A DNA stretch of 64,000 nucleotides from an uncultured bacterium (GCA_964580785.1 CAZOKX010000003.1:2512-66511); one strand, 5' to 3'; numbered from the stretch's first letter, positions 19,584-41,900 are shown. The notes: generated from the letters alone by a model not told the origin. Made by a program: numbers and translations.

Positions 19584-21569
19584 TCATACCGTCACCGTGA
19601 TGCGCGATAGATCAAATACCGCTATTTCATTCTCTTGGATCGGAATGTCAGCCGTTCCATAAAGAGGGCTATCCCCAGGGCCATTAGTCGCAGCGATCTG
19701 CATAATTCCGCTTGCGATCCCAGGAACATTAAAGATTTGGGCTAAAACCCGTTGTAAGAGAACATCAACCCCGATCCCTAAGTTGTTCCCATATGTATTG
19801 ATTGCGGAAGCTACTAGGTCTTGTCCATTTGGTGGGAAGGTCTCCTCTGAGTAGAGGGTTAGCGCAACCGTAACCCAAATGTAGATGGGGGTGGGGCGGC
19901 TAAAGTTGATGACCTGTTGTTCACCCTGTGAGTCGGTGATGGTAAAGGACGTATTACCGAAGGTTTGGATCCCCGCCGGTTTGGTAAGCCAGATTTTATT
20001 TGCAACGTCAGCATCAGAACCTCCTTCTACGACTGCTTCGAAACTTTTGGCGAGACGACCGCCTTTAAATACTGCTTGAGCTTGACTCGCCCCACCAGTG
20101 ACTGAAAAAGTTGTGATAGTGACCTCAGCCGACTCTTTCATAGACATGGTAATTGTTCGATTAGCTGTCCCACCCACGACTGCCGAAGCAATTTGGGGCT
20201 GATTAGCGAGCACAATTGCTATTGCATTCATCGTATCGAGGTGTGAGGTAGCAAAGGTGACAATGGGAAGCATTTGAATGGTATTGAAAACAATCGTGAT
20301 CGTATTTCCGGTGACCAAATCTTGATTGAGTACGATATCGATAGGCTCTTGAGTCATCGTCCTGTTTTCGAAGATGAAAGCTGAGGTAACTCCTGGGACT
20401 TGCTGGAGAAGGCGCGCTCTAATGGACTCGACAGTTCCAGCTCCTAACAGGCGAATAGAATTATTTCTTCTGATGCGCAGCTCAGCATCCGTTTCGATAA
20501 AACGGCCAGTTACGCCAGCCTTTGGATTATTGATCGAATTCCAGCCTGAAATGGGGGTTAAAATTTCTACCAACGTGTTGATAGGAGCGGCGATAGGGGC
20601 AAAATCTTGGGATGAAAAGGCAATCGGAGAAGATTGAGCTGTGATACTTAGGTTAGTCCCTACACTGATAGAAAAAGGGACATCGGGATCATCGGCCACA
20701 ATGGACAAGCTCCCTGTCAAATCGGTCGCTACAATAGTTGAAATCGTCGCATTGATGATGCTGGTTAAATTTTGGGAGACGGCATTGACGGTGGGTGTAG
20801 CAAAAGTCACTGCATAAGTGGGTTGGGAAGCACCCCCTGTTATGACAATTGAATTGATCACGACATTCTTGCCTAACACTGGGATGATACTGATGATATT
20901 TGGGTTGGTAGGCGTGGCAGATAAGACGTCTGGATTGGCCGCGATCGCAGTGGATAGATCTGCAAGAGTTTGGTTATTGCTTGTATTGAAAGGGACGGCG
21001 GCCAATGTCGTCCCATTGAGGGTTACGACGATCGAGTTTCCAGCAACAAAGCTCCCTGTAAAGGTGATGATAGGGAGAGAATAGGTAAGGGCTTGGTTAT
21101 TGATGATAACGGTGTAAGCTTGAGGCGCTGCTAGCCCTACTTGGATGGTAGCGGAGGCTGCATTGGACCGAGTGATAAATGCATCTGCTTGACAAAAGAA
21201 AACAGCGCCCGTATCTGGAATTCTGGCTAATGCCCCTTGATTAATAAGAGTACCTTCCAGTCCTGCACATACAGCGGTAACCTTCGTTTGTTGCGCCGCT
21301 AGTCGAGTGATTGCATTCAATTGAACGACATTATCCAGGCTAATTCCTTCAGCGGAGTTTGGGTACTGGCTGAAGTAGACATCCTGCATATTTTCCCATA
21401 TGTCGGCCTCTACCTTTGAAATAACGCCGATAAGCTGACCAAAGATTGATTGAGGATCCAGGTTGATTTCGCCAAAGGCTGCGAGTAACAGGTTCTCATT
21501 TTCTGCAACGATGTCTGGTAATCGTTTGATCTTGAAACCTTGAGGAGTGAGCCCGAATGGAGAGGTCAT
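19584..21569 (-). CDS. Baseplate J-like wedge protein with two inserted ~90-aa domains
   Basis: 661 aa, positioned after the gp25-like gene. Insert copies at aa ~166-256 and ~411-501 (…VTLNGTTLAAVPFNTS…[10 protein letters not shown] / …VTFATSHLDTMNAIA…VTGGASQAQ). Confidence 0.65.
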   Translation of the reverse strand: MTSPFGLTPQGFKIKRLPDIVAENENLLLAAFGEINLDPQSIFGQLIGVISKVEADIWENMQDVYFSQYPNSAEGISLDNVVQLNAITRLAAQQTKVTAVCAGLEGTLINQGALARIPDTGAVFFCQADAFITRSNAASATIQVGLAAPQAYTVIINNQALTYSLPIITFTGSFVAGNSIVVTLNGTTLAAVPFNTSNNQTLADLSTAIAANPDVLSATPTNPNIISIIPVLGKNVVINSIVITGGASQPTYAVTFATPTVNAVSQNLTSIINATISTIVATDLTGSLSIVADDPDVPFSISVGTNLSITAQSSPIAFSSQDFAPIAAPINTLVEILTPISGWNSINNPKAGVTGRFIETDAELRIRRNNSIRLLGAGTVESIRARLLQQVPGVTSAFIFENRTMTQEPIDIVLNQDLVTGNTITIVFNTIQMLPIVTFATSHLDTMNAIAIVLANQPQIASAVVGGTANRTITMSMKESAEVTITTFSVTGGASQAQAVFKGGRLAKSFEAVVEGGSDADVANKIWLTKPAGIQTFGNTSFTITDSQGEQQVINFSRPTPIYIWVTVALTLYSEETFPPNGQDLVASAINTYGNNLGIGVDVLLQRVLAQIFNVPGIASGIMQIAATNGPGDSPLYGTADIPIQENEIAVFDLSRITVTV

Positions 21570-21928
21570 GCTACAAGCTCCTGCGTTAAGGTGATTTCGC
21601 CTTGGACAGTGCTTACAGAAAATGTGACCGAATAGATGCGCCGCTGAGCATTGAAGTTGCTTACGAAGCTAAGAATTTGGAAAATACCAGGGGTATCCAG
21701 GATTTCTTCTTTAAGAACGCTTTCTATGCGAATTTGATTAGGAGCTTTAATGAAGAAATCATCGTAATAGGGGACACCGGCTGTGGTGTCTAGAAACCAT
21801 TCTCCTAGAATAAAGCGGAGCCTAATCGCTAAGTTTTGAGCGATTTGATCACGGCCTTCTACTAGTTGAAGGTCAAAGTTTTCTAAAAGTAAGTCGCCGG
21901 TCGTTGGATCCAGCGCGATATCTTTCAT
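21566..21928 (-). CDS. Baseplate gp25/W-like (sheath-initiator, DUF2634-like) protein
   Basis: 120 aa. MKDIALDPTTGDLLLENFDLQLVEGRDQIAQNLAIRLRFILGEWFLDTTAGVPY. Overlaps the baseplate J start by 4 nt. Confidence 0.6.
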   Translation of the reverse strand: MKDIALDPTTGDLLLENFDLQLVEGRDQIAQNLAIRLRFILGEWFLDTTAGVPYYDDFFIKAPNQIRIESVLKEEILDTPGIFQILSFVSNFNAQRRIYSVTFSVSTVQGEITLTQELVA

Positions 21929-22015
21929 GAAGCCTCGTTAACTCAAAAACGTTTCCTAATCGTTTACGGTTGGGTCTTTGAGTTAATCGAGACTATTGGG
22001 TATGCTTGGTAGCTA

Positions 22016-22666
22016 TTAAGGGATTGATCCCTTGATAGAGTCCAAAGCTAATTTTAAACTTGCGTAAGTGGGTCCTACTCCTTGGAAAATTGGGCTTCCT
22101 GGTGCTGTTGTCACAGAAGTTATCAAAATTCCAAGTATACTGCTGACGATATCTAGCACTTCTGCTGAGGTATTTCCTATCGCCACCTTTGAAGCTGTTT
22201 CGATTTGAATATCTCCACTAGCTTTAATTCTTATACTAGAGTTTTTGTATGTTAAAAGCACGTCTTCATTGTTTTCGGATAAAGAATTTTCTGAAAATGG
22301 AAGAAGCCCCATAATTGCGACAGCATCGGAGAGATCGAATTTTCTTGGATCATTGGGAGCAACCACTCCGCCTACAGATTTCCAAAGATCGGTGCTTCTT
22401 TCAATAAACAAGAGAAGGCATGTGTCACCTGGTAAAACCGGAAAAGTCAAGCTTGCCTCACCTGATCGTGGGAAAATCACGGGGACATTATTGAGTATCG
22501 GCATTTCTTGAGTAGTTCCGTCTAGATAGCTCTTCTTTAAACAAGGTTGGATCGTCGCTTTTTGGATCGAGTAATCATAAGAGATGATTTGACCAGGCAG
22601 TGCGGTATGGACGTCGTATAGCTGAAATAAAACGGCCTGTCTCATAGCATCGGTCATTGTGGTCAT
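22016..22666 (-). CDS. Central baseplate spike (Mu gp45 / Gp138 N-terminal domain-like)
   Basis: 216 aa. LPGQIISYDYSIQKATIQPCLKK...PILNNVPVIFPRSGEASLTFPVLPGDTCLLLFIERS fits the spike OB-fold N-domain pattern. Confidence 0.55.
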   Translation of the reverse strand: MTTMTDAMRQAVLFQLYDVHTALPGQIISYDYSIQKATIQPCLKKSYLDGTTQEMPILNNVPVIFPRSGEASLTFPVLPGDTCLLLFIERSTDLWKSVGGVVAPNDPRKFDLSDAVAIMGLLPFSENSLSENNEDVLLTYKNSSIRIKASGDIQIETASKVAIGNTSAEVLDIVSSILGILITSVTTAPGSPIFQGVGPTYASLKLALDSIKGSIP

Positions 22667-23526
22667 ACTAAGATCATCTCCATAATTGAGCGCCAGTTGG
22701 GGCCGAAAGTATCCCCCTCGTGCTTGATTGAGAAAACCGAATAGGGGCCATCGAGTCCAATTCTTTGCGATTTAACATTGATCAAGTCTCCAGGAAGAAT
22801 GTCAGGGCGCAGGGTTGTTGTGACAATGTAACCCGTCTTCGGGCCATCTAGGTAAAGGCTAGCCCTTTTGTCTGTAAATCTTTGGGGGATGCCAATCATG
22901 CCTGTATCCGCATTGATTTCTACGGCTGGTTTTGAGGTAGTGCCAAATTGGGGAATGATTTGAAGCTGACCGTTTTGGACGCTCCATTTTAGCCCTAGTC
23001 TTGAGACGGCTTTATCGATTGCATTCTTGCCCATTCCTATGAACTCAAAGCCTTGCTCGTAAATAATATTATCAGTAGGAGCAAACTCAGAAATAGTAAG
23101 TCCCATTTGCTGGGCGATTGTCTCGACAACCTGACGCACGGCGACCTTCTCTTTGAAGCTGACGGTAATATTCTTTTGATTAAGAATCCTTTCGCCATCT
23201 CCACAGTCCAAGGTTGTGATGATTTCGGGTTGTTCGTAAGCATGGCTGACTTGTGTGGTGTTGCCGATGAAAAGCAATTGTTCCCCTGCGGCTTGACTGT
23301 ATCCGGCTGACACGATGACTTGGTCTCCATAGTCTTTAATCCTATTTCTATTTTCTTGGCTTAAATTCCATATTTTTACCGAGGCTGTGTTGGCTGACCA
23401 GGCTAGATTTTTTTGCATAGAGAAAGCGATGCGTAAGTTTGCCAGTTTTATGCTCCCAATATACCCACTAAAAGTGGCATTTCTTAAATCTATCTGGACA
23501 CTTGCTACACGATTAAATCGGGTCAT
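22663..23526 (-). CDS. Baseplate hub protein (Mu gp44 / XkdQ-like)
   Basis: 287 aa. LRIAFSMQKNLAWSANTASVKIWNLSQENRNRIKDYGDQVIVSAGY is a typical hub-protein N-terminal pattern. Confidence 0.55.
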   Translation of the reverse strand: MTRFNRVASVQIDLRNATFSGYIGSIKLANLRIAFSMQKNLAWSANTASVKIWNLSQENRNRIKDYGDQVIVSAGYSQAAGEQLLFIGNTTQVSHAYEQPEIITTLDCGDGERILNQKNITVSFKEKVAVRQVVETIAQQMGLTISEFAPTDNIIYEQGFEFIGMGKNAIDKAVSRLGLKWSVQNGQLQIIPQFGTTSKPAVEINADTGMIGIPQRFTDKRASLYLDGPKTGYIVTTTLRPDILPGDLINVKSQRIGLDGPYSVFSIKHEGDTFGPNWRSIMEMILV

Positions 23527-23527
23527 T

Positions 23528-23848
23528 TTAGACGAACTCCCCTAAGGCATAATAAATTAATTCAGAGACTTCTCCCATGTCATAACGCTGAATTTTTCCT
23601 TGGCCGCCGATGATATTTTCACAGACAATATCCCCACTTGGCTTCCCATTTGTGACATATTGAGCGGTTAAATCGTAGTTGACGACTACCTTAATCCCTA
23701 CAATCAGGGGGACTAAATCTCTTGTGAGAATGTCCATGACCCAATATTCATTCATCGCATTCCAGCTGAAAGAGAGGACAAATGTTTGATTGCTGAGCTC
23801 GATTTGCTCTTGCCATTGAGAAGGCTCTTTAAAAGGAATGATCTGCAT
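23528..23848 (-). CDS. Small baseplate/tail protein (plug-like)
   Basis: 106 aa between the distal-tail and hub genes. FVLSFSWNAMNEYWVMDILTRDLVPLIVGIKVV. Confidence 0.4.
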   Translation of the reverse strand: MQIIPFKEPSQWQEQIELSNQTFVLSFSWNAMNEYWVMDILTRDLVPLIVGIKVVVNYDLTAQYVTNGKPSGDIVCENIIGGQGKIQRYDMGEVSELIYYALGEFV

Positions 23849-24495
23849 TATGTCACCCCCAGAATTTGACTTTTCACAGATAAGACGGTCGGTAGAATAT
23901 TGCCAGGGATAGGAGCTAAAGATTGGACTCCCACATTAATCCCGCTGGCTGCTTGGTCTTTTAAACTGTCTGGTGGGTCATTTTGAATGATAGGGTAGTT
24001 GGCATTTGAAGCTACGATGTCTCTAGGAATCTTAGTCTGAATCCCTCCAAAAATATTGCCTTGGTCCAGCAATAGCCTGACAGAAGTATCAAAGACAATC
24101 CTTTGCAGCTCAATAGTAAAGGTAAGGGATTGGCCAGTTCTAACATCTCTTGGCACGTCCAGAGTTGTGATGGCCATATTTTTATAAACTTTTAAGCCGG
24201 TTACGACGGTGATCACATCTCTGTTCTGGTGTAGCTGAATCAAACGATTGAAGGCATCAATGGAGCGATTAAAAGGAGCAAAAAGGGAAAGAGGGGTGTC
24301 TGTAACTAATCCAACCAGAACTACAATGTCTGGTTCATTGATGATATGATCTGAAACAATGGTGCCATCTTCGACAGGGTAATTTGTTACCCGCGATGCA
24401 AAGCGATGTTCTTCCCGAATGGTCACATCTAAATCGATCGAGCCAATTTTTGGACTCGGATATTTTTTGCCAAATAGAAGAGATAAGACCATCAT
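23848..24495 (-). CDS. Distal-tail / baseplate protein following the tape measure
   Basis: 215 aa, overlaps the tape-measure stop by 4 nt. IGSIDLDVTIREEHRFASRVTNYPVEDGTIVSDHI. Confidence 0.45.
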   Translation of the reverse strand: MMVLSLLFGKKYPSPKIGSIDLDVTIREEHRFASRVTNYPVEDGTIVSDHIINEPDIVVLVGLVTDTPLSLFAPFNRSIDAFNRLIQLHQNRDVITVVTGLKVYKNMAITTLDVPRDVRTGQSLTFTIELQRIVFDTSVRLLLDQGNIFGGIQTKIPRDIVASNANYPIIQNDPPDSLKDQAASGINVGVQSLAPIPGNILPTVLSVKSQILGVT

Positions 24496-25562
24496 TCCAC
24501 CTGGGGGTTATTGTTGTAGATTTCTCTTACCTGATCGATCAAAGCGCTTTTAATCACCTCATCGACAGTTTCTCGCAAGATAACTTGCTGCTGTTCGGTG
24601 GTCCCTGGGGGGACTTGCATCTCTATTTTCGTATCGATATTGAAGTTCTGTTCAGTGACAGCAGGAGCGTTTTTGGCAGCCTGATTTTCCATGATTCGAT
24701 TGATCTTCTGGGTGGCTTCGATTTCAAAGTCGGGGATATCCGCTAAATCTGACATGATCTCACGTTGGACCCCTTCACCGATCAGCTTAAAGGCTCCTTT
24801 AATCCCGCGAGCTACATAGCCAATGCCTCTCATGACGACTTCTAAGACTTTTACACCGGCTGTGATAGCAGGCAAAATATCCTCGACAAAAGCCATCTTG
24901 AAAGCTTCAAAAGTATTCCAAAAAGAGCGGATGGATTTATTGACTTCTTCGAAGGCAGGAAGAGAATTTTCAAGAGACTTGGCATAGTCGGCGTATTTAG
25001 CTGTCAAAACATCGAGGTTATCTCCTGCTTCCTGCGCAAATTTGATGAATTTTTGAGCATCTTCCTCGCCGAAGAAGAATTTGGCAATGGAGAATTTTTC
25101 AGTTTCGGTGCGTGCTTCATTGATCCTCTTAAGAATATCAATGAAGAGGTCACGAGCATTCTTGACTTCTCCTGTGAATTTATCTCGAAATTCAATGCCT
25201 GTGTAATAGGCAATGTTTGCCAAATCTCCCATGCCGTATTTGGCTTCGCGAAGCATTCTGCTCAAGCTTTTTAGGGCAGACTCAAAGTTTTTAGGGTCGA
25301 TCCTGAAATCTTCAGCTGTTTTTCTTAGCTTGAGAAACTCTTCAAAGGAAATACCTATGCTTTTTGCTAGGTCATTGGCATCAAGGGTTGCATCGGAAAT
25401 GTCTTTGAAAAATTCTAAAGTCTTAGCTACGAAGGCAGTTGCTGCCGTTGCGGCGATAGCAAATTTAGTTTTAAAGCCAATAATGGTGCGGTTGAAATCT
25501 TCAACCCCTTTCTTATCGACTACAAAACCGAGGACGGTGGTAAGCTCTCTAACTACTGTCAT
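24492..25562 (-). CDS. Tail tape-measure protein (short)
   Basis: 356 aa, largely helical. The N-terminal part resembles the tape-measure core (…GFKTKFAIAATAATAFVAKTLEFFKD…), and the gene sits after the chaperone pair. Confidence 0.6.
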   Translation of the reverse strand: MTVVRELTTVLGFVVDKKGVEDFNRTIIGFKTKFAIAATAATAFVAKTLEFFKDISDATLDANDLAKSIGISFEEFLKLRKTAEDFRIDPKNFESALKSLSRMLREAKYGMGDLANIAYYTGIEFRDKFTGEVKNARDLFIDILKRINEARTETEKFSIAKFFFGEEDAQKFIKFAQEAGDNLDVLTAKYADYAKSLENSLPAFEEVNKSIRSFWNTFEAFKMAFVEDILPAITAGVKVLEVVMRGIGYVARGIKGAFKLIGEGVQREIMSDLADIPDFEIEATQKINRIMENQAAKNAPAVTEQNFNIDTKIEMQVPPGTTEQQQVILRETVDEVIKSALIDQVREIYNNNPQVE

Positions 25563-25716
25563 TTCGACCCTTTTCTCTTAGATTCTTCCATCAAATCAAG
25601 CCGCATATCCAGTAGAGCATTTGCCCTCAGTAGATCATCTAGACTCCATGTGCGCTCGATCTCCTCTAAAGAAGCGATTCCTTCCAATATTATACGCCAG
25701 AAAAGAAACTCATTCT

Positions 25717-26193
25717 TTATGTCCGGATGGAGGTTTTTCTCGTGTCTGGCTGACGATTCTGCGGCATCGGTACTACGTTCCCGAATAGGTTTCCAATACC
25801 GCTCTCCCCAAAAAAAGAACCAAAGTTACAGTCGATAACAAACCATAAGACCTGCATGAGGGTGCCAAGATCTCCAGCAAATTCTACGTCTATGACAGAC
25901 TCTGTCAATTCCATACCGTCTTTTCTTACCCCTTGGCAGAGCTCAAGTACCAGGCTCTCAAAGGTTTTATCATCGAGCTGGCTCATTAAAGATTCTACTG
26001 CACGTACAGCTTCTACTTTTGAAAAGGGGAGACCAGATATGCTTTCATTGTTTCCTCCTGGCAGCAGTAGCTGAGCAAGAGCTGGGCCGAATAAGCGTAA
26101 TAGTTTGGCTTTTAAGCGAAGAGCTCTTCTAGCTGGCAGCTGCGTGACAGAATAGACGGCTCCTTTAATTTGCTTTTCTTTTGTTTGAATCAT
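25717..26193 (-). CDS. Tail assembly chaperone (gpG-like; the gpGT-like extension would reach 25559)
   Basis: 158 aa between the tube and tape-measure genes. An otherwise non-coding 154-nt gap lies before the tape measure, and the -1 frame fills it. Confidence 0.55.
   Translation of the reverse strand: MIQTKEKQIKGAVYSVTQLPARRALRLKAKLLRLFGPALAQLLLPGGNNESISGLPFSKVEAVRAVESLMSQLDDKTFESLVLELCQGVRKDGMELTESVIDVEFAGDLGTLMQVLWFVIDCNFGSFFGESGIGNLFGNVVPMPQNRQPDTRKTSIRT
25732..25740 (-). other. Candidate -1 programmed frameshift site (AGAAAAACC on the coding strand) in the tail chaperone gene
   Basis: A run of five A sits 6 codons before the chaperone stop. The -1 frame stays open for about 55 further codons and ends at TGA 25559-25561, overlapping the tape-measure ATG (ATGA). 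Confidence 0.5.
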
Positions 26194-26624
26194 ACATTTA
26201 CTCCATTACTTCCGACGAAGACGTCGAGATCAACTAGGTCCAAGACCCACTCGCGGTTTGCAAGGTCTTTCCCAAATTCTGAGGAGGGGTATTTCTTAAC
26301 CCATCCCGTTGCGCTGAAAAAGATAGAGTTACCGCTTAGATCCTTAACTAAAATGGGGACAACCCCCGCATTTGTGAGCTCATCGACATTCGCAAAGCCA
26401 GAGAGCACGTCGTTGCTTGGGCTTGACTGCTTGAGGGTAATGATCATGTTTCCAGAGCGGTTATTGCTCTTGATTCGTGTACTTGTGCCATCTGCACCAG
26501 TGACTTTATTCCATTGATTGTCATCTCTATCAACGGTAAGGAAAGAGCCGTCAGCAAAACCGCTCATCGGAACTCCACCTACCGTGATAATGACCTGTTT
26601 AGGGTCGTACGTCCTTACGCTCAT
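26190..26624 (-). CDS. Tail tube protein (DUF3277-like)
   Basis: 144 aa. MSVRTYDPKQVIITVGGVPMSGFADGSFLTVDRDDNQWNKVTGADG. Position relative to the sheath gene. Confidence 0.6.
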   Translation of the reverse strand: MSVRTYDPKQVIITVGGVPMSGFADGSFLTVDRDDNQWNKVTGADGTSTRIKSNNRSGNMIITLKQSSPSNDVLSGFANVDELTNAGVVPILVKDLSGNSIFFSATGWVKKYPSSEFGKDLANREWVLDLVDLDVFVGSNGVNV

Positions 26625-27121
26625 AGTGCACCTCCAATTTTACCATGCAAGTTTTTATGACAAGACACACAGAGCCATATAACATCTAAAGGTTTGCCAT
26701 AATCCTCGTGATGCCCCTCGATTCTTTTAGACTGAACTCCACATTTCTGGCATGCGGAGGGTTTTTCAATTTTGCCCATTTGGACTGCCTTTCTTAATTT
26801 GTTTCTAGCCCTATGTTTTTCAGGGTTTTCAGCAATATAATTGTTGATCTGTTGCCTGATCTTTTCTTTGTTTTCTCTGGCATACTGTTTGTGCCTTGCA
26901 AGGACCTGCTCTCTATATTTTTCATTGTTCCTGTAATAATTTAATTGGTAGCCAGCCTCTTTCTTCTTTTGCCTTTGACCAAGCTCAACAAGCTTCCCCT
27001 TTCCCGTTCCCTTATATTTCTTTTCTGCTTCCCTACATTTGCATCGTTTGCACACTTCTTTTTGTTTCTTAGGAAATTCAGAATCTTCCTTTTCTACTCC
27101 ACAACTTGAACATTTAAGCAT
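26621..27121 (-). CDS. HNH-type (homing) endonuclease-like zinc-finger protein inserted between the sheath and tube genes
   Basis: 166 aa. N-terminal CSSCGV...CKRCKC. C-terminal CQKCGVQSKRIEGHHEDYGKPLDVIWLCVSCHKNLH. Lys/Arg-rich centre. Confidence 0.6.
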   Translation of the reverse strand: MLKCSSCGVEKEDSEFPKKQKEVCKRCKCREAEKKYKGTGKGKLVELGQRQKKKEAGYQLNYYRNNEKYREQVLARHKQYARENKEKIRQQINNYIAENPEKHRARNKLRKAVQMGKIEKPSACQKCGVQSKRIEGHHEDYGKPLDVIWLCVSCHKNLHGKIGGAL

Positions 27122-27176
27122 AGGTCCCTCACTTTAGGGAGGGTACTATACCTTACTGCCATTTAAACCCTGCCCA

Positions 27177-29057
27177 TCAAATTGTTACGGTACCCGTAAT
27201 ATTAATCGCGTGTATGGCTCCCGATAACGTCGCTTGAAATCGGACGTTTTTCAAAATCCTCTGAGCTTTGTCATTGGGAGGAACATTTGCAGCTTTGGGG
27301 ACTGTCACTGTTGGGGCGGGATCATTTGCTATGAAATTATTGCTGATTCCCAGCTGTAAGGCTCTTTTTACCTCGGATTCAATGGCTGTGATTCCTGCAT
27401 CGGTGTAAGGGACTTTATTGCTGTTCACAAGCACGGAATAAACGAACTCTTGAATTCGAGAGGTCAGCCAATCTACTCCACGCACGATATCAATAAATTC
27501 TCCTTGAGCCACAGTGCCTTCCCTGGTAATCCCTACACCGCCAATGAATTCATAGGTATTGGCTTTTTTATTCCTCGCGTTTTGGGATTGGGTGCTTGTG
27601 AGGTTAGAGTAGGAGATGGAGTTTAGCCTTTTGAATTTCCAAGTTTCTGATCCTGGATCAAGAGGAAGGACGCCACCAAACCAAGCACATTCAGGGAAGT
27701 CATTTGCCGCATCTTGGTGATAAAGGACGAATGTCCGGACGTAACCAGCTTGGTTGCATTTAGCTGCAATAGAAGAAAGATCGACTCCAGCAGCTAAATT
27801 GATGATATTTGGATCAGCGGAAGCTGTGCCAAAAAGTTTGATTTGGCCTTCTGTCCATCCTGCTGCTGAGAAAACTGTAGCCGCTGTTCTATCTGTAAGA
27901 GCGAGGGCATACCAGGAGTCATCGACTAATTGGACGGCATTTAAATCATTGATCACAGTGTCAGAAGGTACAAAGGGATTGATGATCAAGCCAAATTGCT
28001 TGCTGAGGATCCCATCAGACACGCTCAGAACAAAACCAGTCCCTGGAACGTTGGCTGTCAGCTCAAAGCTTCCATCGTGGTTGTCTTCAGCGCTCACAGG
28101 TACAGCTGTTTGAGCCACAAGGATTGCAACTAAGGCCGCTGCAATATCTTCATTTGTCTGGACTTCGTTCAAAGTTGTATAGGTAAAAGCGACTCCGTTG
28201 ATTGTCACCGTATAGTCGGTATTCGGTTCCACTTGGGTCACTGTAACCCGCGCGGCATCCGGATTCACGATCGTTGAACTCACGTCTAAGGTGTAAGGAG
28301 TGCCTGGGGTGCCTGCGGTTAAGTTAAAAGTCCCATCGTTGTTATCTGTTGCCGTTACTTCTAGAGCGGCGGTATTTATTGCAGCAACCAATGATCCGGC
28401 AATAGTCTCTGGTGAAACAGGTTGGACGGGGGTCGTAATCGTAGCTGTTGGTTGGCTTGCCCCTCCAGTCACGACAAAAGAGTTGATGATGGCTGAAACG
28501 TTAGGAGCACCAAAAACATTGATGACCAGGTTGGATCCTGTGATGCTAACAGAATCGACGGCGGGATTGGCTTCTAGCGCTGTCGCAATATCATTCATCG
28601 TAGTGATTTGGTCCGTATTGAAGGGGATAGCGGCTAAAGGAGTGCCATTTAGAGTGATTGCAATAGAGTTGCTGGCTACGAAGTTGCCACTCATTGTCAC
28701 TACAGAGTTTTGCGCTGTAGGAGTGGAGGCGACAGTGACATTGGTCGAGTTGATCGTGGTTGTATAATTGAATGGAGACATAGCCGTTTCGACCAAGATC
28801 GTGGCGTTATCTACTGTCCTACGTCCAATGGCTATCTGCTCGGGGCTTAGGTTTTGACTGAAAGCTTCTTGAGCAGCGATATATTCTAGATCAGTAGGAC
28901 TGAAATCATTGCTTACCGCCTGAATATTGCTATAAAACCTGATGCGATCATTAAACCGTTTATGGGTTCCCAAAATCATGAGAAGGCCAAAGCCAGCTTC
29001 TGAAACAGCTTGAGTGTCTCGAGTGATCTGCACGTTTACGATGTCGCTTAATGGCAT
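27177..29057 (-). CDS. Contractile tail sheath protein (DUF3383-like) with inserted surface domains
   Basis: 626 aa. The C-terminal half ([12 protein letters not shown]…[33 protein letters not shown]) fits the sheath family. A ~90-aa insert sits at aa ~118-208, followed by two further beta-alpha-beta-like repeats. Confidence 0.7.
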
Positions 29058-29065
29058 ATCCCCTC

Positions 29066-29614
29066 CTAGGGTATTGTGATTGTGTGATCGTAGACCACGC
29101 TTCCGCTAGCATCTTGATAAATTTCCTCTACCTCGACTGTCTCAATCAGACCTAAATTGTCTTGGTAGTTTTCCCCTATTCTGAAGAGGACATCCATGGC
29201 AGCTCTTTTTTCAAATCGCGAATCTAGGAGTTCGGTGGTATCGTTAATAGAGAAATGATTTACAAACACGATTCCGTTGGCTCTTAAAGTATCCAATACA
29301 GTTTGCATCTGCAGGCTGTTTCTTAAATCTTCAAGACGGGTGATGCAATCCCCGCCATAAGTTTGAATCTGCAGAGTGAATTCTCTATCGCCTACCATGT
29401 CTACTAATCCATTGACATCGGCCTCTGGGGTGTAGTCTTCGCCTATTTGATTCAGAGCACTGAGCAATAAAGTCACATATGGCTGAGCGGGACGCGGAGC
29501 ATTTTCATTCAAGAAAATGACCGAACATCCAGGGCAATTAGCTAAGGCCCAGGCATAGAGATTAGTCTTTATTGTCTCAAAGTTAAGCGGCATTCCTGTC
29601 TCCGTATAAGACAA
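29066..29614 (-). CDS. Neck / tail-terminator-like protein
   Basis: 182 aa, immediately upstream of the sheath gene. Assigned by position only. Confidence 0.35.
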
Positions 29615-29780
29615 GAACAGAGTGAAGCTTATGTCCTTCCATCTCCATATTGGGCACGTAAAACGTGTCGTATTTGATGTCCAACAGCCGCCATGCGTTG
29701 TCTATGATTTCTTGTAAAAACTCATTCAACCTTGATTCAAGAATTGAGTGATCGGTTTCTGATATCATTTTTGCTTTCAT
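29583..29780 (-). CDS. Small hypothetical neck-region protein
   Basis: 65-aa ORF packed between neck genes. Confidence 0.3.
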   Translation of the reverse strand: MKAKMISETDHSILESRLNEFLQEIIDNAWRLLDIKYDTFYVPNMEMEGHKLHSVLVLYGDRNAA

Positions 29781-30136
29781 TATTGTCCCTCTAATCGTAA
29801 GACTATGTATTTGTAGTGGTTTACCAACCCCATTGCTGAGGCATTTTGCCAGGGAAAAACTTGAACTACTTCGAAGGTTTTTCCAAAAAAAAGAACAAGG
29901 TCAGGGTTTACCGCTGTAACCGTGTTGATGAGAGTTGAGGTAAAAAGTTTATATCCCTCCGAATCTCTTCTTGCTTCTGGCAGCTCCTCCATCTCTTCAC
30001 CCTTCATGGGTTGGATGCTGGAGGTAATTTGAGTATCTGTGTAAGTACCATCGGTCCAGCGCCCATTTGTATATCCTCCGCTTTGAAAGCGGCGCAGTGT
30101 TACAGGGGAGCGAAAGATTTCAAATGGCGACGTCAT
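29780..30136 (-). CDS. Head-closure / neck protein (by position)
   Basis: 118 aa, translationally coupled on both sides. Confidence 0.4.
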   Translation of the reverse strand: MTSPFEIFRSPVTLRRFQSGGYTNGRWTDGTYTDTQITSSIQPMKGEEMEELPEARRDSEGYKLFTSTLINTVTAVNPDLVLFFGKTFEVVQVFPWQNASAMGLVNHYKYIVLRLEGQ

Positions 30137-30615
30137 TTAAGCACCACCTTATAGCGCACCGATTGCACCATCTGACCGAAGTCAATTAAAGGTTTGGAGC
30201 TCTTCTTAATTGCAATGGTTCTTGGAGAGTTGGGGGGAGAGACGATAGCACGGATCTTTTGCACGATTAACTTAGTCATCAGTTGACCGATCAATCCTAA
30301 AGATCTTTCTGTAGTGCTTCTGCCATCTAAAATTTTATTGTATTCGCCTTGGATCGCTTTGTTGATTAATGCCTTGTTTTCGTCGAAGCTTGTGGACATG
30401 AAAGGCCGAGCGGGAATGATTTTTGTTCCAAATTCATTCTCTGCTGCTATTTGAGGAATCGAAAGACCAGCTGTTTGCTTGCGTTGTCCCTTGACTTGAG
30501 TCTTAGTGACGGTTCCCTCTTGAAAACCTACCTTGACGTGAGAGCCATCTAGCAAAGCAATCTGCCTTTGGATTTCTGCAAACCCTAAATCTTTATCCCT
30601 GACAACAACACGCAT
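30133..30615 (-). CDS. HK97 gp10-family head-tail joining protein
   Basis: 160 aa. ENEFGTKIIPARPFMSTSFD matches the gp10-family EFGT…ARPF signature. Confidence 0.65.
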   Translation of the reverse strand: MRVVVRDKDLGFAEIQRQIALLDGSHVKVGFQEGTVTKTQVKGQRKQTAGLSIPQIAAENEFGTKIIPARPFMSTSFDENKALINKAIQGEYNKILDGRSTTERSLGLIGQLMTKLIVQKIRAIVSPPNSPRTIAIKKSSKPLIDFGQMVQSVRYKVVLK

Positions 30616-31006
30616 TGATCACCGCAAAGTTTGGGGGTAAATTTGTTACAGTCGAGCCGATTACGGTTCGCTTGATCAAGTCCTTGTAAAGCCTTCCATA
30701 TTGGGTAGCGTCCAAAATCGAAGAGTCATTACCGATAGCTAAGCCAATCGAAAGCTCTCCCTCACCAAGATTGGTCGCGACCCCTGTCTGAGGGCTGGTC
30801 TGTAATTGAAGCCAATGAGCCAAAAGATAGACGTAGGCCAATACACCGCAGCAAGATAGGACCCGTTCATTGACTTGGCATCTCAACAAACCAATCATGG
30901 TGTTGTAGTTAGCCAACTTCGTTGGGTCAGTCGTATAGAACTGAGGTGCAAGAACAAACAACGTATCAATGATCGTTTGACTTGGTATTGGATCCGAAAT
31001 GCTCAT
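30593..31006 (-). CDS. Head-tail adaptor (DUF4054-like)
   Basis: 137 aa, downstream of the capsid gene region. Assigned by position and a weak pattern. Confidence 0.4.
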   Translation of the reverse strand: MSISDPIPSQTIIDTLFVLAPQFYTTDPTKLANYNTMIGLLRCQVNERVLSCCGVLAYVYLLAHWLQLQTSPQTGVATNLGEGELSIGLAIGNDSSILDATQYGRLYKDLIKRTVIGSTVTNLPPNFAVINACCCQG

Positions 31007-31349
31007 TTTCTTCTGCCTCTGCTTGATGAGAAATTTTATGAAGCTGTTTTTTAGCTGCGTCTACGACCTTTTCTCGGCCATCTTCCTCGATAATTCGATT
31101 TAGATAAGCGTGATCATAAATTTGAGGGATGAGCTTCATCATCTCCTTAACCGACTTCTTACCATCCGCTTCTTTGTCTGGAGATTCGGGAATAATCACG
31201 ATGATTCCTTCTTCGACCCTATGTTGAAATAAAGGATGAAGGAGGAGGGCTTTGAGTTCGCCCTCCGGAATCTCATTGATCCCTGGCATCAGGCGGCTGG
31301 TAAAGTTACAATAGTAGACGTTCTTACCGTTGTACTTGACTAGAGCCAT
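30966..31349 (-). CDS. Hypothetical head-module protein
   Basis: 127-aa ORF starting at the capsid gene stop. Confidence 0.4.
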   Translation of the reverse strand: MALVKYNGKNVYYCNFTSRLMPGINEIPEGELKALLLHPLFQHRVEEGIIVIIPESPDKEADGKKSVKEMMKLIPQIYDHAYLNRIIEEDGREKVVDAAKKQLHKISHQAEAEENEHFGSNTKSNDH

Positions 31350-32278
31350 TAGATTCCCTCCCCGATGGACAACGAGAGTGGGTAATAGATGATGATCCCA
31401 CCGTAACGAGACTCGCAGTTGATGATGAACTCAAGACCACGCTCTTGAGGTGGGTATTGAGTAAATGGCATCGGAATCTCCATCGTGAGCTTATCAGGGT
31501 TCTTCTCATAAGCGATCATGATGTCAACCCCTGAAGGACCAGCACCCTTCAATTCAGGTACCCAATCAACGGTTGTGATGAAAGGGTTGTTCTGAATGAA
31601 ATACTCCAAGATCGTCGTATCGCTGTTAGCGGAACGAGGAGTTGAAGAGATCAAAGTGTATTGGTCGATAGGAAGAATCAGCGTGTTAGGCATTTCAACC
31701 CCGTTTGTGAGACCTACAATGCCATTTGATAATTGGTTCATATCGCGCAAGATTTGATCAGGCGTTTTATTTACCCAAAGAGTTGATCCCCCTGTACCAT
31801 CCGCTGGAACAGAAGCTGCTGGGATATTTGGGTTATTGGTCAGACCAAGAATATTGGAGGCAGTATCTCCAAACCAGGCAAGCCTGTTTACTTTTTGGTC
31901 ATTGGCTCTTCGAGTGGCATTTGCCTGACGTTGTGTAAGGCTTCGGCCTACAAACATCGCGGCTCTAATCTCCTGCATCGAATAACCATAGCTAGCTCCA
32001 ATGGATTTCACTGGAGTGATGAATTCCTTACCGCGAATATCGCAACGAGGAAAGTCATCGGCATAACTCGAAATGATTCGAGCAAGCCCTGTTTCTTCAA
32101 ATGATTGGTACGTGATCGATTCCGCACCTGCTCCGGCCTCTGTGCTAACAGGAATTAGCTTGATGGCTTTGAGAGGAGGGAACTCGATGTCGTACGACTT
32201 TGATTTTATGTACTCGAGCTCACGGGCAAAGAACGCTGTCTCTCCCGCGTCGAGGTTAACGCTAACAATTTTATCCAT
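31349..32278 (-). CDS. Major capsid protein (DUF2184 / encapsulin-like HK97 fold)
   Basis: 309 aa. AGETAFFARELEYIKSKSYDIEFPPLKAIKLIPVS… fits the DUF2184 capsid N-terminal pattern. Position after the scaffold-like and cement-like genes. Confidence 0.7.
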   Translation of the reverse strand: MDKIVSVNLDAGETAFFARELEYIKSKSYDIEFPPLKAIKLIPVSTEAGAGAESITYQSFEETGLARIISSYADDFPRCDIRGKEFITPVKSIGASYGYSMQEIRAAMFVGRSLTQRQANATRRANDQKVNRLAWFGDTASNILGLTNNPNIPAASVPADGTGGSTLWVNKTPDQILRDMNQLSNGIVGLTNGVEMPNTLILPIDQYTLISSTPRSANSDTTILEYFIQNNPFITTVDWVPELKGAGPSGVDIMIAYEKNPDKLTMEIPMPFTQYPPQERGLEFIINCESRYGGIIIYYPLSLSIGEGI

Positions 32279-32290
32279 TTTACCTTCTCC

Positions 32291-33073
32291 TTAGTTCGGC
32301 AAGTTGATTTCTAACGTTGCAACAGCACCAGCAGTAGCTCCAACCGTGTATCTTGCAGTTGGAAGCGCGATAGCTCGGCCCCCATCTGAATCAGCACGGA
32401 ATCCACCAGGGAGCAGAAGACCATTGGCAGCAAATCTCCAGTAAACTGGACTATCGCTGGTTAGGGTTTGCTCTGCCGCTACATAGACACGACCTCTGGT
32501 GAGCAGGGATACGCAATCGCCCTGGAAATAAATCGGATTCCCGAAAGAACCGAGCTGGTTCAAAGGGTTCGGTTTATTTTGAGTTCTTGCACCCACTCCA
32601 TAGAAAGTGTCTTGGGTAGTGTTTGTGATGGTTGCTGTGGCTTGCGATGCGCCTGCCGTTACTACGAATGAGTTAACGATGGCGACATTTCCCTCTGTGG
32701 CTCTCACAGTAAGGGTATGGTTGCTTGGATCACTTACTACTGCAGAAGCAATATGAGGTTGAGCCAAGATCGCAGCTGCGATAGCGTTCATTGTTGCAAC
32801 ACTAGAAGTTGCAAAGGTAATGGGCGCTAGGGCCACTCCGTTGACACTGACATTGATCACGTTTGATGTGACGAGGTCAGCGCTGATGACGGTGGTCGAT
32901 AGGTTAGACTGAGGAAGGCGAACGACGTAATCTTGACCGATTACCTTCGCAAGACCCAGACCTACGTTAAAATTCTCGAATGCAATCGGAGAAAGGACGT
33001 TTTTAAAGCCAGAATCGGCTAAAAGACCTACGCTTCCGACATCCATTAAAAAGGGATAGCTTAGTTGTGGCAT
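32291..33073 (-). CDS. Head decoration / cement-like protein carrying the shared ~90-aa insert
   Basis: 260 aa between the DUF2213-like and capsid genes. The insert at aa ~60-150 (VSVNGVALAPITFATSSVATMNAIAAAILAQPHIASAVV…VVTAGASQATATIT) is paralogous to the inserts in the sheath and baseplate J proteins. Confidence 0.5.
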   Translation of the reverse strand: MPQLSYPFLMDVGSVGLLADSGFKNVLSPIAFENFNVGLGLAKVIGQDYVVRLPQSNLSTTVISADLVTSNVINVSVNGVALAPITFATSSVATMNAIAAAILAQPHIASAVVSDPSNHTLTVRATEGNVAIVNSFVVTAGASQATATITNTTQDTFYGVGARTQNKPNPLNQLGSFGNPIYFQGDCVSLLTRGRVYVAAEQTLTSDSPVYWRFAANGLLLPGGFRADSDGGRAIALPTARYTVGATAGAVATLEINLPN

Positions 33074-34374
33074 GGTATTTTACCTCCTGGCTTGAAACCA
33101 TTTTTCATCTTGTCGATCATCGCCTGACGCGCCATTGCGGAATCGGCAGGTTGATGGTCGAATTTAGTTTTGTACTCAACTGGGGTTGCAATGACCTGAG
33201 ATGGGGCAGGAGTCATGTCCTCAAGCAGAGCGTCGAATCTCGCTTGAATATAGACCGCAGTCTTCCCATCTAGATTTGCGTGCTTTTGGCGGGCTTTGAT
33301 GACTTCTTTCTTGATTTCCAAGTCGGACATATCATCAACTCTGGCCAAGGTTTTAGAATCCAGGACAGTTTCTGCAATTTTTTGCAGTTTGACCCGTTCC
33401 TTAACGAGAGATCTGATAAACGCAGCGTCCATGTTATTGTATTTGTCATTCTCTCTTTTCTCTTTGTCTTGAGGTTTTGGAGGAACTCGCTCGCCGTTAG
33501 GAGCTTTGACAGGAGTTTCTTGGGTTGCATAAGGATTTTCCTTAGACATGTAGCCCACTTCTTTCTCTATCTTTTCTTCTTCCTTATCAGCCTCTTTTTC
33601 CTCTTCCTCATCGTCCCCATTTTTCATGGAGCTCAATTCAGCCGATAACCGATCTCTTTCTTCGGCTATCCTGCTTCTTTCTGCCTCGAGATTTGCGATG
33701 CGGGCAAGCAGCTGTTCAACTTGATTAGCTACATTGTCCTCCATCAAAATCTCGTCATCGTCAATCTTGACTTTCCTTTTAGCCATATTGGCCTCCTCTA
33801 TTAAGATTTCTTCTGCATCGAAACTGTCTAATGCTATTCTTGCCTCGCTGCCTGCTCTGGCGTTGTCAACAATGCTTAGGTGGTTGTATTTGATATTGGT
33901 TTGGCGGAAGTTATAGGGCTGACCCTCATAACTCCCTTCTTCTGGGATAAGATCGACGGTGTACCCTAAAGAGAGCTCTTTACGGTTTCTTTCGGTAACG
34001 TCCTTAACACTAGCCAGGTCTGTAATCAGTAAGTTGGAAAGGACAAACTCCCCGTCTTGAGTAATTGTTTCGCCTGTATAACCAATGGCAAGACGTTTGG
34101 CATTTTCAGCCGAGACAAGACGTTCTTGAGGATGCCCATTTGTCACAGGAATCATTTTCAGGCTGTCTAGACTATCGGTCTTAAAAACCTCATCAGGATG
34201 ACGCAGTTCTTTCCGAATCGTTCCGTCGGGGTTTTTATAGAGAAAAACACCGGTACGGGTGACGACAGCATTTGCTTTGATGTAGCCTTGTTCAGTGATG
34301 AAGGCGTCGCCTTTGACTTGTCCTCTATCAAAACGAGCAACATCATTCAATTTCATTATTTTCCCCAAACTCAA
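33061..34374 (-). CDS. DUF2213-like head scaffold / maturation protein
   Basis: 437 aa. N-terminus FITEQGYIKANAVVTRTGVFLYKNPDGTIRKELRHPDEVF…IPVTNGHP. Coiled-coil Glu/Lys-rich centre. Confidence 0.6.
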   Translation of the reverse strand: MSLGKIMKLNDVARFDRGQVKGDAFITEQGYIKANAVVTRTGVFLYKNPDGTIRKELRHPDEVFKTDSLDSLKMIPVTNGHPQERLVSAENAKRLAIGYTGETITQDGEFVLSNLLITDLASVKDVTERNRKELSLGYTVDLIPEEGSYEGQPYNFRQTNIKYNHLSIVDNARAGSEARIALDSFDAEEILIEEANMAKRKVKIDDDEILMEDNVANQVEQLLARIANLEAERSRIAEERDRLSAELSSMKNGDDEEEEKEADKEEEKIEKEVGYMSKENPYATQETPVKAPNGERVPPKPQDKEKRENDKYNNMDAAFIRSLVKERVKLQKIAETVLDSKTLARVDDMSDLEIKKEVIKARQKHANLDGKTAVYIQARFDALLEDMTPAPSQVIATPVEYKTKFDHQPADSAMARQAMIDKMKNGFKPGGKIPCHN

Positions 34375-35349: not shown

Positions 35350-36807
35350 CTATATAGCTCCGCGATACCTTACCCCTGTTGGCATAAAGTCAGGTCCAAT
35401 ACCAGGTGAGGGAGTTTCCTGGGCTTTTTTCTCTTTCTCGAGTTCGGCGACTTCTTCAGGGTCAAAACCACCCTCTCTAGCCTCAAGATCCACTTCAGTA
35501 TTCATTGACCATCTGTTACCGCCAAAACGAGAGACGGCTACTTCTGCAGGATCCAGAACACCTCGATCCAGGTAAATGGCATCTGTTTCTGCCACAATCT
35601 TTCTGACAAGGGCCTCTTGCTCTTCCGTGTTTTGCCAAAGAGGCACAAACTGGATAGACCAGTTTTCTGGTTCGACTCCGGCGAAGGATCCATCTTTGGA
35701 GAGCATGATGTAGCGAGTCAGCTTTTCAAGCATGGGCTTGAGCTTAGACTCTTGCTCTTGTTTGACCATGTCGTAAAAATTTCTGACGTCGTTATCTCCT
35801 GTAGCATTCATGCCTGCCGCACTTCTTCCGAAGAGCAGGGATACGGGGACGCCAGAGACCGCAGATAGAGCCAACATAAAACGGTCGAGAAGCTCAGGGA
35901 TACCAGAGATGTTTGTGGATGCTTTTTCATATTTCTCCGCAGCATCCAATATCATCGTATTGGTTGCTCCTTTTGTGAGGTTAAGTAGATCCAAGCGTTT
36001 CATGACTTGATTATCAGCACATTGAGAAGCGATCAATTCAGCCAGATTAGGGATGGAGAGGGTATAATTGACAAAATCCTGCATGATCAGGCCCGCATTC
36101 GCAAAGGCCGTGGAATAATTACGCAGTTCATTATAGATCGATTGAATAAGAGGGTCTCCCCAACCATTGTTGAAATTTTGCTGTCTTGGCGGCAGTAATG
36201 ACCAATCCGCGCGCAGGATGCGCGAGTGGTGCACATAGAAAAGTGCGCCCGTGCGTGTATCATTAACTGTGTAAACGTTGGGGAACCCATAGTTGGGGCT
36301 GTTCAGGTCTTTTTCGAACGTTCCATCTCTACTGAAAGCTTGATAGCGGTCAAAAACATGAAGCCACTTCACATCACGGATGTTTTTCTCATCTACAGGC
36401 TCCTCAAGAGGAAGGCCGTCTGCAATACCCATAACGCATAAAGCCCCTCCATAGAGCCTTGCCCAACGGAGCACTGTGATTAAGTTGAAATTGGCCTTAA
36501 TGGATTCCATCTTGGCGTTGATCTCTTGATTCGCATCGCCTTCGATTTCCCAGCCTTGACGAACCATTTCAGCAGGAACGATATCCATAATCCGGCGCGT
36601 AATTCCATCAGATCTATAAAGCTGATCTAACTCTGTCTGTTCAAAAATTCTCTCTATCCAGAAATGTGCATGAACATTTTTGTCTCGACCCCGCATACCA
36701 AGTCCTGTTAAGACATTGATCCAACCATCAGATTTGACGGCTCCATCGTTATGGGGGATACGGCTTTGTTCTTCGGCTGATTTTTTCTCAAAATTATACG
36801 TGCCCAT
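35350..36807 (-). CDS. Portal protein (DUF1073-type)
   Basis: 485 aa. DGWINVLTGLGMRGRDKNVHAHF…LDQLYRSDGITRRIMDIVPAEMVRQGWEIEGD. Followed by the MuF-like gene. Confidence 0.8.
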   Translation of the reverse strand: MGTYNFEKKSAEEQSRIPHNDGAVKSDGWINVLTGLGMRGRDKNVHAHFWIERIFEQTELDQLYRSDGITRRIMDIVPAEMVRQGWEIEGDANQEINAKMESIKANFNLITVLRWARLYGGALCVMGIADGLPLEEPVDEKNIRDVKWLHVFDRYQAFSRDGTFEKDLNSPNYGFPNVYTVNDTRTGALFYVHHSRILRADWSLLPPRQQNFNNGWGDPLIQSIYNELRNYSTAFANAGLIMQDFVNYTLSIPNLAELIASQCADNQVMKRLDLLNLTKGATNTMILDAAEKYEKASTNISGIPELLDRFMLALSAVSGVPVSLLFGRSAAGMNATGDNDVRNFYDMVKQEQESKLKPMLEKLTRYIMLSKDGSFAGVEPENWSIQFVPLWQNTEEQEALVRKIVAETDAIYLDRGVLDPAEVAVSRFGGNRWSMNTEVDLEAREGGFDPEEVAELEKEKKAQETPSPGIGPDFMPTGVRYRGAI

Positions 36808-36983
36808 GTTCTTCCAAGAGTTAAAGACTTAAGGTGATCTGCTTTATTGGGAAAATGGGTAGTTTGGTCTAGAAGATGACCATTTTTGAGTAGATGGGTC
36901 TTTTAATTAGGCGACTTTACCTAGTTGAAATCTACCTTATCATAGGTATCTAAAAAATAACAGGGCAAGCTTAAGAAATACTG

Positions 36984-37154
36984 CTATCTTTTGCTTATAC
37001 GATTTATTTTCGCCAACATAACTGCAAGTAGAACCGTCTGAGTAACAAGTGCGATGATGACGATCCAACCAAATATCTCCATACCCATGCAACAATTTTT
37101 CATCATGCCCATCATCTCATTATTGCCTTGCATCATGTTCATCTGCCCATCCAT
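36984..37154 (-). CDS. ORF absent from the supplied track: 56-aa Met-rich single-pass membrane peptide (possible Cu/metal-associated)
   Basis: Hand translation gives MDGQMNMMQGNNEMMGMMKNCCMGMEIFGWIVIIALVTQTVLLAVMLAKINRISKR. An AAGAGG Shine-Dalgarno lies 5 nt upstream. Downstream of the ATPase on the same strand. Confidence 0.4.
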   Translation of the reverse strand: MDGQMNMMQGNNEMMGMMKNCCMGMEIFGWIVIIALVTQTVLLAVMLAKINRISKR

Positions 37155-37189
37155 CAAAACCTCTTATTGAAAGCTTTTGTCTCTTGTTT

Positions 37190-37327: not shown

Positions 37328-37374
37328 ACAGCACCCTTATTCTGGTCCGCCATTAATCTTATCGGTACAGGCTA

Positions 37375-41881: not shown

Positions 41882-41900
41882 TTTAAATCCTATGAGCTTT

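Follow-up and report, generated by a model that had tools for sequence, protein, structure and literature searches.

Shuffling of accessory domains among the virion proteins of phages is already known, as is the presence of extra domains on tail sheaths. Immunoglobulin (Ig)-like decorations of tailed phages are promiscuous, and weak adhesion to surface polymers is the accepted working idea for their role (Fraser 2006, as relayed in PMC9230969). Extra sheath domains sit away from the tube, on the outside, and an adhesive precedent is also discussed for them (PMC9230969); the sheath of phage phiTE has an 'external domain D3' (PMC11972413). On the CRIB-18 plasmid of Criblamydia sequanensis, a 'phage group' of genes has been reported (Koestlbacher et al. 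2021, PMC7846284). Here we describe a domain of about 91 amino acids (aa), labelled D90 in this report, which occurs at four sites in three virion proteins encoded by a stretch of 64,000 nucleotides (nt) from an uncultured bacterium (GCA_964580785.1 CAZOKX010000003.1:2512-66511), hereafter the window.

A repeated domain in three virion proteins

The window contains a myophage structural module located on the minus strand. The initial annotation, made from the sequence alone, had pointed to one domain pattern at four sites of three proteins of this module: the tail sheath, baseplate J (twice) and a head cement protein. The residue ranges given for this pattern convert exactly to the nucleotide positions listed below, together with independent E-values (i-E) from the profile search described further on.

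32291-33073, minus strand: head cement (decoration) protein, 260 aa, with one D90 copy (PF22758 Phage_cement)
32624-32896, minus strand: D90 in the cement protein, aa 60-150 (i-E 3.8e-39)
27177-29057, minus strand: tail sheath, 626 aa, DUF3383 / E217 gp31 type (PF11863, phrog_205)
28434-28706, minus strand: D90 in the sheath, aa 118-208, nested inside external module 1 (i-E 1.7e-39)
19584-21569, minus strand: baseplate J (wedge 2), 661 aa, with two D90 copies (PF04865, phrog_6)
20802-21074, minus strand: D90 copy J1, aa 166-256, nested inside an IN-like module of J itself (i-E 1.1e-36)
20067-20339, minus strand: D90 copy J2, aa 411-501, a clean insertion (i-E 2.6e-39)

The identities proposed for the three host proteins were upheld by Pfam matches and, for the sheath and J, also by phrog profiles. 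The cement protein matches PF22758 with 66.3 bits (cut-off 27), the sheath matches DUF3383 (PF11863) with 96 bits (cut-off 34.9) and phrog_205 at 6.5e-108, and J matches PF04865 with 27 bits (cut-off 21.1) and phrog_6 at 3.7e-54. Solved homologues of the sheath include 9zdk gp76 (E 4e-75) and the Pam3 sheath (4e-19), while J is similar to the wedge proteins 9zd7 gp88 (4.5e-42) and Bas63 wedge 2 (8.5e-39).

The four segments share 30-50% pairwise identity (26-45 identities across 85-90 columns). Their Smith-Waterman pairwise scores range from 81 to 227, against means of 34-41 (standard deviation about 7) for shuffled sequences, which corresponds to z scores of 7.4-26.6, and 0 of 500 shuffles equalled any observed pairwise score. 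A hidden Markov model (HMM) built on the four segments was run on the six-frame translation of the window and on the whole 1.73-Mb genome. In the window it recovered the four segments at i-E 1e-36 to 4e-39, with the next match at E > 1, and the genome-wide search returned the same four copies and no further ones. The D90 repeat is confirmed at exactly the positions listed. Its similarity extends beyond low-complexity Ala/Thr/Val composition (z up to 26.6), and a compositional artefact is ruled out by the shuffle z scores and the HMM E-values.

For structure prediction, 49 D90 copies (the four of the window plus copies cut from IMG/VR loci) were aligned and submitted to AlphaFold2 (AF2). The model of an isolated copy has a mean predicted local distance difference test score (pLDDT) of 91.8 and a predicted template modelling (TM) score of 0.82. 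It contains strands at residues 5-9 and 18-23 plus two short bridges, a helix at 37-49, and strands at 54-60, 65-70, 78-84 and 92-95. The resulting order of elements, β-β-α-β-β-β-β, comprises an N-terminal β-hairpin, a 13-residue helix and a β-meander. The same fold recurs at residues 58-152 in the AF2 model of the full cement protein (pLDDT 86.7). D90 is predicted to be an autonomous α/β domain of about 90-95 residues; the high-confidence, self-folding model of an isolated copy agrees with its initial description as one domain.

Several positions of D90 are near-invariant: an Asn before the second strand, the NG turn of the hairpin, a Thr at the helix start, and the C-terminal loop (V/I)TGGASQ(P/A)T. 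In this loop the sheath copy of the window has TGGASQ, and the cement copy TAGASQ. In the Criblamydia-type lineage (L085, L016, L020, L053, L056 and L060) the sheath and cement copies both read TLGASQ; the most conserved loop may have changed in parallel in two proteins of a single phage, through co-variation or by chance.

The initial annotation could not assign the domain to a named family, and searches with the D90 profile and copies gave nothing meaningful in Pfam (E <= 10), NCBIfam (E <= 1) or PDB sequences. Relatives were found at the level of structure. Foldseek comparison of the isolated model with the PDB returned external domains of sheaths and outer domains of flagellins. The sheath of A-1(L) (8kee) was matched with a query-normalised TM score (TMq) of 0.63 (E 5e-4), that of phiTE (9cb9) with 0.49, that of Bas63 (9mt4) with 0.48 and the Bas63 wedge with 0.51-0.54. 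The nozzles of P-SCSP1u (TMq 0.65) and T7 (0.56-0.60) and the D2/D3 domains of the flagellin FliC and the cap protein FliD (0.38-0.45) were also matched. Among predicted viral structures the best match was a true member of the D90 family (773 aa, TMq 0.88, 33% identity), followed by sheaths, siphophage major tail proteins and baseplate J proteins. In hhalign, D90 was compared with an alignment of the external sheath module cleared of D90 C-termini, and the two aligned over 60 columns in a topologically equivalent register (47% probability, E 2e-4). This suggests that D90 may be related to the external sheath module, in an enlarged and diverged form.

None of the four copies matched an Ig family in Pfam at E <= 10. 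An Ig fold is ruled out by the 13-residue helix of the AF2 model and by the best Foldseek matches, which are sheath, nozzle and flagellin domains. The analogy to Ig-like and BACON decorations that had been drawn initially therefore stands in one respect, since D90 is carried by many kinds of virion protein across metagenomes, as Ig decorations are, but it does not extend to the fold, which is α/β and neither Ig nor BACON.

The composition of 194 D90 copies was compared with that of the rest of the same proteins. Lys and Arg together account for 2.5% of D90 residues versus 6.8% of the rest, Trp and Tyr for 1.3% versus 4.4%, and Thr for 14.9% versus 8.7%. Ser, Thr, Asn, Ala, Gly, Val and Ile make up 70% of D90, and the sheath copy of the window has no Lys, Arg or His. 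Apart from core Phe, no aromatic residue is conserved among the 194 copies.

Insertion sites and nesting of D90

To locate D90 within its hosts, the proteins were aligned to solved homologues. A profile of 51 cement homologues was aligned to Pam3 gp6 (8hdt_G): residues 3-49 of the window protein correspond to 5-52 of gp6, and residues 160-258 to 70-157. About 110 residues of the cement protein thus stand for about 17 (53-69) of gp6, and D90 lies within this stretch. The core of the cement model matches the Pam3, XM1, T1 and FCWL1 cement proteins (156-166 aa) with Foldseek target-normalised TM scores of 0.62-0.70 over about 265 columns; it is complete in the model, with an excursion of about 100 columns. 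J aligns to 9zd7 gp88 (487 aa) in three blocks (6-190, 275-411 and 508-660), and J2 falls between gp88 residues 334 and 339.

The sheath has a more complex organization. Its residues 3-112 align with 4-113 of 9zdk gp76 (428 aa) and residues 268-626 with 85-428, so that gp76 residues 85-113 align at both places. There is one external module in gp76, and there are two in tandem in the window sheath (aa 85-345), the first one being split. Module 2 (aa 268-345) corresponds to the single external module of gp76, which starts at gp76 residue 85. A jackhmmer search seeded with module 2 matched aa 85-128 to model positions 1-43 and aa 192-255 to positions 12-74, with D90 between them. Both external modules have sub-threshold Pfam matches to Flagellin_IN (16.6-17 bits, cut-off 22.7), that of aa 220-250 scoring 16.6. 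The predicted module segments are as follows, with the supporting method in brackets.

28719-28805, minus strand: sheath external (IN-like) module 1, N-terminal half, aa 85-113, β-hairpin (jackhmmer)
28284-28424, minus strand: sheath external module 1, C-terminal half, aa 212-258, helix plus strands (jackhmmer)
28023-28256, minus strand: sheath external module 2, aa 268-345, intact (alignment to 9zdk gp76; jackhmmer seed)
21078-21149, minus strand: J IN-like module, N-terminal half, aa 141-164 (alignment of joined halves)
20664-20795, minus strand: J IN-like module, C-terminal half, aa 259-302 (jackhmmer, aa 240-299 = model 13-74, 1.1e-14)

When D90 was removed in silico, the joined sheath halves aligned unbroken to intact modules and to 9zdk gp76. 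In the same way, J residues 141-164 joined to 259-302 aligned unbroken to intact sheath-type modules and to gp76. Because the split halves rejoin without D90, the sheath copy and J1 are best described as a domain within a domain, each placed in the hairpin-to-helix loop of an older accessory module. Judging from the alignments, all four copies are inserts relative to solved homologues and leave the host cores intact; the possibility that the segments are core parts of the host folds is ruled out by homologues solved without them. Alignment to these structures bore out the proposal that D90 is inserted in non-core loops of three proteins with unrelated folds. Insertion into the sheath and J also held, with the amendment that the sheath copy and J1 are nested inside another small accessory domain.

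Nesting of D90 is not limited to foreign modules. In the 719-aa sheath of the related locus L084 (10609-12768), D90 model positions 2-32 are followed by a complete D90 and then by positions 32-98. In the equivalent sheaths P0013 and P0028, a split D90 lies between the halves of an external module, which makes three nesting levels; by analogy, the split D90 of the L084 sheath should itself lie within a split external module, again at three levels. The D90-in-D90 pattern is also present in P0031, P0056 and the cement protein P0011. D90 takes up the inner copy in the loop that follows its first hairpin, and this corresponds to the position where D90 itself interrupts the external module.

Distribution, inheritance and divergence

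A search with the D90 profile identified 953 clusters (50% identity representatives) at E <= 1e-3 and 278 at E <= 1e-10, almost all of them uncultured. Host proteins were assigned among the best 150 of the 953 clusters. Seven families were distinguished: about 50 cement proteins, 32 DUF3383 sheaths, about 9 PF04984-type sheaths, 17 baseplate J proteins, 2 neck terminators, 1 E217 gp28-type collar protein and 1 XM1 gp53-type minor capsid protein, with 1-4 D90 copies per protein. The metagenome search thus placed D90 in many kinds of virion protein. Neither Flagellin_N nor Flagellin_C was present in the 57 best matches that had no class. A metagenomic protein of 1570 aa with no Pfam family (P0012) carries four or five copies along its length and is perhaps a D90-decorated fibre or enzyme. 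The domain is present in 5 of 50,697 deposited phage genomes, all closely related 193-kb Rhizobium phages that carry it in the sheath and include RHph_I42, N46 and RHEph12, and in 1 of 72,556 plasmids, the Criblamydia sequanensis CRIB-18 plasmid, at four places.

This 89.5-kb plasmid (L085, NZ_LK031773.1) is the closest named relative of the window. The two share gene order, 72% identity in the primase-helicase, 76% in the sheath and 97% in the capsid protein, and the plasmid has the same four D90 sites. Within the phylum of the window, D90 is present in 9 of 300 species genomes (this one included), which belong to five families; the copy number is exactly four in every one, and the frames that hold the copies match in size. 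The eight other genomes share the virion module of the window. The element looks like a tailed phage-plasmid lineage of environmental chlamydiae. To our knowledge, no tailed phage particles have been described for these bacteria.

A D90 copy resembles its same-site counterparts in other genomes more closely than it resembles the other copies of its own genome. A blastn-short comparison was also run among copies from the window, 18 related loci and the Criblamydia plasmid. Significant DNA tracts were found only between same-site copies, or in two cases with an unassigned site (L040), and copies assigned to different sites gave short, weak matches only. Gene conversion between paralogous copies was rejected for this lack of shared DNA tracts between different sites. 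Since same-site copies are the most alike and paralogues have no DNA tracts in common, the four insertions are old and inherited by site. In this lineage the initial description of D90 as deliberately distributed amounts to four old, vertically inherited insertions rather than a recent spread within the genome.

In a poorly resolved tree of the 194 copies (94 columns), J1 and J2 group by site, and the sheath and cement copies do not. Its cement-sheath sister pairs hinted at exchange within a genome, but for L084 same-site copies are more alike across phages than are copies within one genome, and within-genome homogenisation is therefore not claimed. The hairpin variants SDPSN(H/R)TLTV and GGxN(D/R)RTIT are common to sheath, cement and J2 copies at the level of amino acids, without support at the level of DNA.

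D90 is under purifying selection. The ratio of nonsynonymous to synonymous substitution rates (dN/dS) is 0.02-0.13 against close IMG/VR orthologues, where dS is measurable, and the aa identity of D90 in this comparison is about that of the sheath core and somewhat below that of the J and cement cores. Relative to the Criblamydia plasmid, D90 copies are 66-77% identical and the cores 78-96%; over this longer distance D90 evolves 2-7 times faster than the cores. Among the 194 copies conservation is lowest from the helix end up to the strand that precedes the GGASQ motif. When close orthologues of the sheath and cement proteins are compared, most of the changes and indels fall in the post-helix hairpin.

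The cement gene shows a further irregularity. Between the window and the Criblamydia plasmid, its nucleotide identity is about 0.9 in the flanks and 0.53-0.83 over codons 61-140. Codons for the same amino acid are identical in 49% of cases within D90 versus 72% outside it (Fisher p = 9e-4; 1e-4 with the capsid gene added). L060 and the Criblamydia plasmid are second closest to the window in the cement core (0.897) and furthest in D90 (0.725-0.729), whereas three other relatives show the reverse order (core 0.884-0.886, D90 0.81-0.84). The dS of D90 exceeds that of the core in 6 of 6 comparisons, marginally so for L076, which has the same D90 variant. Because synonymous identity, ranking of relatives and dS all differ from those of the core, these data point to a separate history of the cement D90 segment, with probable replacement by recombination.

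The remaining genes recognized in the structural module are listed below.

35350-36807, minus strand: portal
33061-34374, minus strand: protease/scaffold
31349-32278, minus strand: major capsid protein
29066-29614, minus strand: neck terminator
26190-26624, minus strand: tube

The sheath and tube genes are separated by a Cys-rich open reading frame of 166 aa (26621-27121, minus strand). Its C-terminus is HNH-like by eye (GHHEDY...LCVSCHKNLH), and it has no Pfam match at E <= 0.01. On the Criblamydia plasmid the tube gene directly follows the sheath gene (11887 to 11905), and for this reason the reading frame looks like an inserted gene of the homing-endonuclease type. Positions 36808-45361, beside the portal gene, encode two P-type ATPases (one with a heavy-metal-binding domain), an outer-membrane efflux protein and a multicopper oxidase. 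These genes are metal-resistance cargo within the phage-like element.

Possible roles of D90 and comparison with known systems

We hold the structural and evolutionary description of D90, that is its identity, fold, insert positions, distribution and selection, with high confidence. For the full explanation, in which a portable plug-in domain also has an adhesive role, we see even chances. The role tentatively favoured, by analogy, is weak multivalent adhesion. D90 has entered virion proteins of unrelated fold by in-frame insertion at permissive loops: in the cement protein, the loop matching Pam3 gp6 53-69; for the sheath copy and J1, the hairpin-helix loop of an older external module; and for J2, the wedge core directly. 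The host cores stay intact, with D90 as an extra. In the chlamydial phage-plasmid lineage the four insertions are old, inherited by site and kept by purifying selection, and across phages D90 changes in copy number, nests within itself and occurs in further virion proteins. Many weakly binding copies could then cover head, tail and baseplate, as Ig-like decorations do, and such a coat may raise the chance of productive contact with the host or with host-associated surfaces. Adhesion is preferred because the spread over head, neck, tail and baseplate, the variable copy number and the dispensability of D90 match Ig-like decorations, and because a fast-evolving stretch after the helix is carried on a constrained scaffold and the cement segment has a separate history.

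Several observations weigh against an adhesive role. Aromatic residues are few (Trp and Tyr, 1.3%), with no evident classical carbohydrate-binding platform, and D90 has no match to carbohydrate-binding families (CBM/BACON) in Pfam or NCBIfam. The invariant residues may serve the fold rather than a ligand site. Surface exposure is deduced from the alignments to solved homologues, since the published extra sheath domains lie on the outside. A structural role would account just as well for the strict four-site layout and for the finding that, in close relatives, D90 is constrained like the cores.

Such a role is the main rival, which we nevertheless consider rather unlikely. As a lattice stabiliser, D90 would contact neighbouring subunits or other D90 copies and help to cement capsid, extended sheath and baseplate, without binding anything beyond the particle. 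The placing of one copy in the cement protein and of another in the external sheath module would suit this function, and tail stabilisation has been suggested as a role of additional sheath domains (PMC9230969). In close relatives D90 is under purifying selection of about the same strength as the cores, and the layout is invariant in the nine genomes of the phylum. However, the solved homologues assemble without D90, the copy number varies from 1 to 4 between orthologues, copies nest, and a variable hairpin with indels together with a separate history in the cement gene would be unusual for a tightly co-evolving contact surface. We find it improbable that D90 forms a protective coat which shields the virion from proteases or recognition and may scaffold glycosylation: the low Lys and Arg and high Thr content (2.5% versus 6.8% and 14.9% versus 8.7%), a mildly acidic character, the sheath copy lacking Lys, Arg and His, and the likeness to flagellin outer domains would agree with it, but the composition may merely reflect the fold and the family is widespread well beyond intracellular hosts. 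Even slimmer are the chances of a common docking site, at which copies on head, sheath and baseplate would anchor one shared accessory protein, e.g. a fibre or whisker; the GGASQ loop is conserved across all copies, as such a site might be, but many phages that carry the family have different sets of tail genes. The richness of the segments in Ala, Thr, Val, Ser and Asn could finally have betrayed an artefact of low complexity, or the segments could have been the core of the host folds. The likelihood of this is practically nil, as it is refuted by z scores of up to 26.6, HMM E-values down to 1e-39, the confident fold and homologues solved without the segments.

A wider proposal starts from the adhesive reading. 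D90 might constitute a second general 'decoration currency' beside Ig-like domains, a self-nesting cassette that moves between genes and phages and acts as a true multivalent adhesin. We regard this as doubtful; if it were true, copy number and the variable post-helix stretch would tune the stickiness of the whole particle to host-associated surfaces, which for this element would be those of environmental chlamydiae inside amoebae.

Relative to the literature searched, the new points are the D90 family itself and its size, the fact that cultured phages almost never carry it, the recursive nesting, and the conserved four-site layout on chlamydial phage-plasmids. It represents an unrelated, uncatalogued α/β counterpart of Ig-like shuffling, with about a thousand clusters and at least seven kinds of virion protein, in which one loop tolerates recursive domain-within-domain insertion. 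D90 merits definition as a family, which would correct the 'hypothetical protein' labels of the cement and J homologues of the Criblamydia plasmid and account for sheath, cement and wedge proteins of unusual length. It also offers a compact, well-folding scaffold with a permissive insertion site for phage display, and it is a marker of the set of virion genes conserved on the plasmid-like elements that environmental chlamydiae carry.

Four groups of described domains are closest to D90. The domain inserted in podophage nozzles (T7 gp12, P-SCSP1u) is similar over about 95-105 columns (TMq 0.56-0.65), with an identity of 17-21% and in another host protein. The outer variable domains (D2/D3) of the flagellin FliC and the cap protein FliD and Flagellin_IN (PF07196) resemble it as exposed, variable inserts between conserved terminal parts of a core; the likeness is at the level of the fold, and D90 itself has no Pfam match to PF07196. 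Ig-like decorations (I-set, FN3 and Big_2 on Hoc, major tail, wedge and fibre proteins) are likewise small accessories of unrelated virion proteins; the host fold can do without them, their copy number varies, and phages exchange them. Unlike these β-sandwich domains, D90 is α/β, is inserted in loops rather than appended, and nests within itself. The external sheath domain (D3 of phiTE, about 85-170 of 9zdk gp76, and its counterparts in Bas63, Milano and A-1(L)) and the wedge-2 module have the same order of elements as D90, and the hairpin-helix loop is the insertion site in both the external module and D90. D90 differs from this module in its extra N- and C-terminal strands, its GGASQ motif and its separate sequence family, and it occurs additionally in head, neck and collar proteins.

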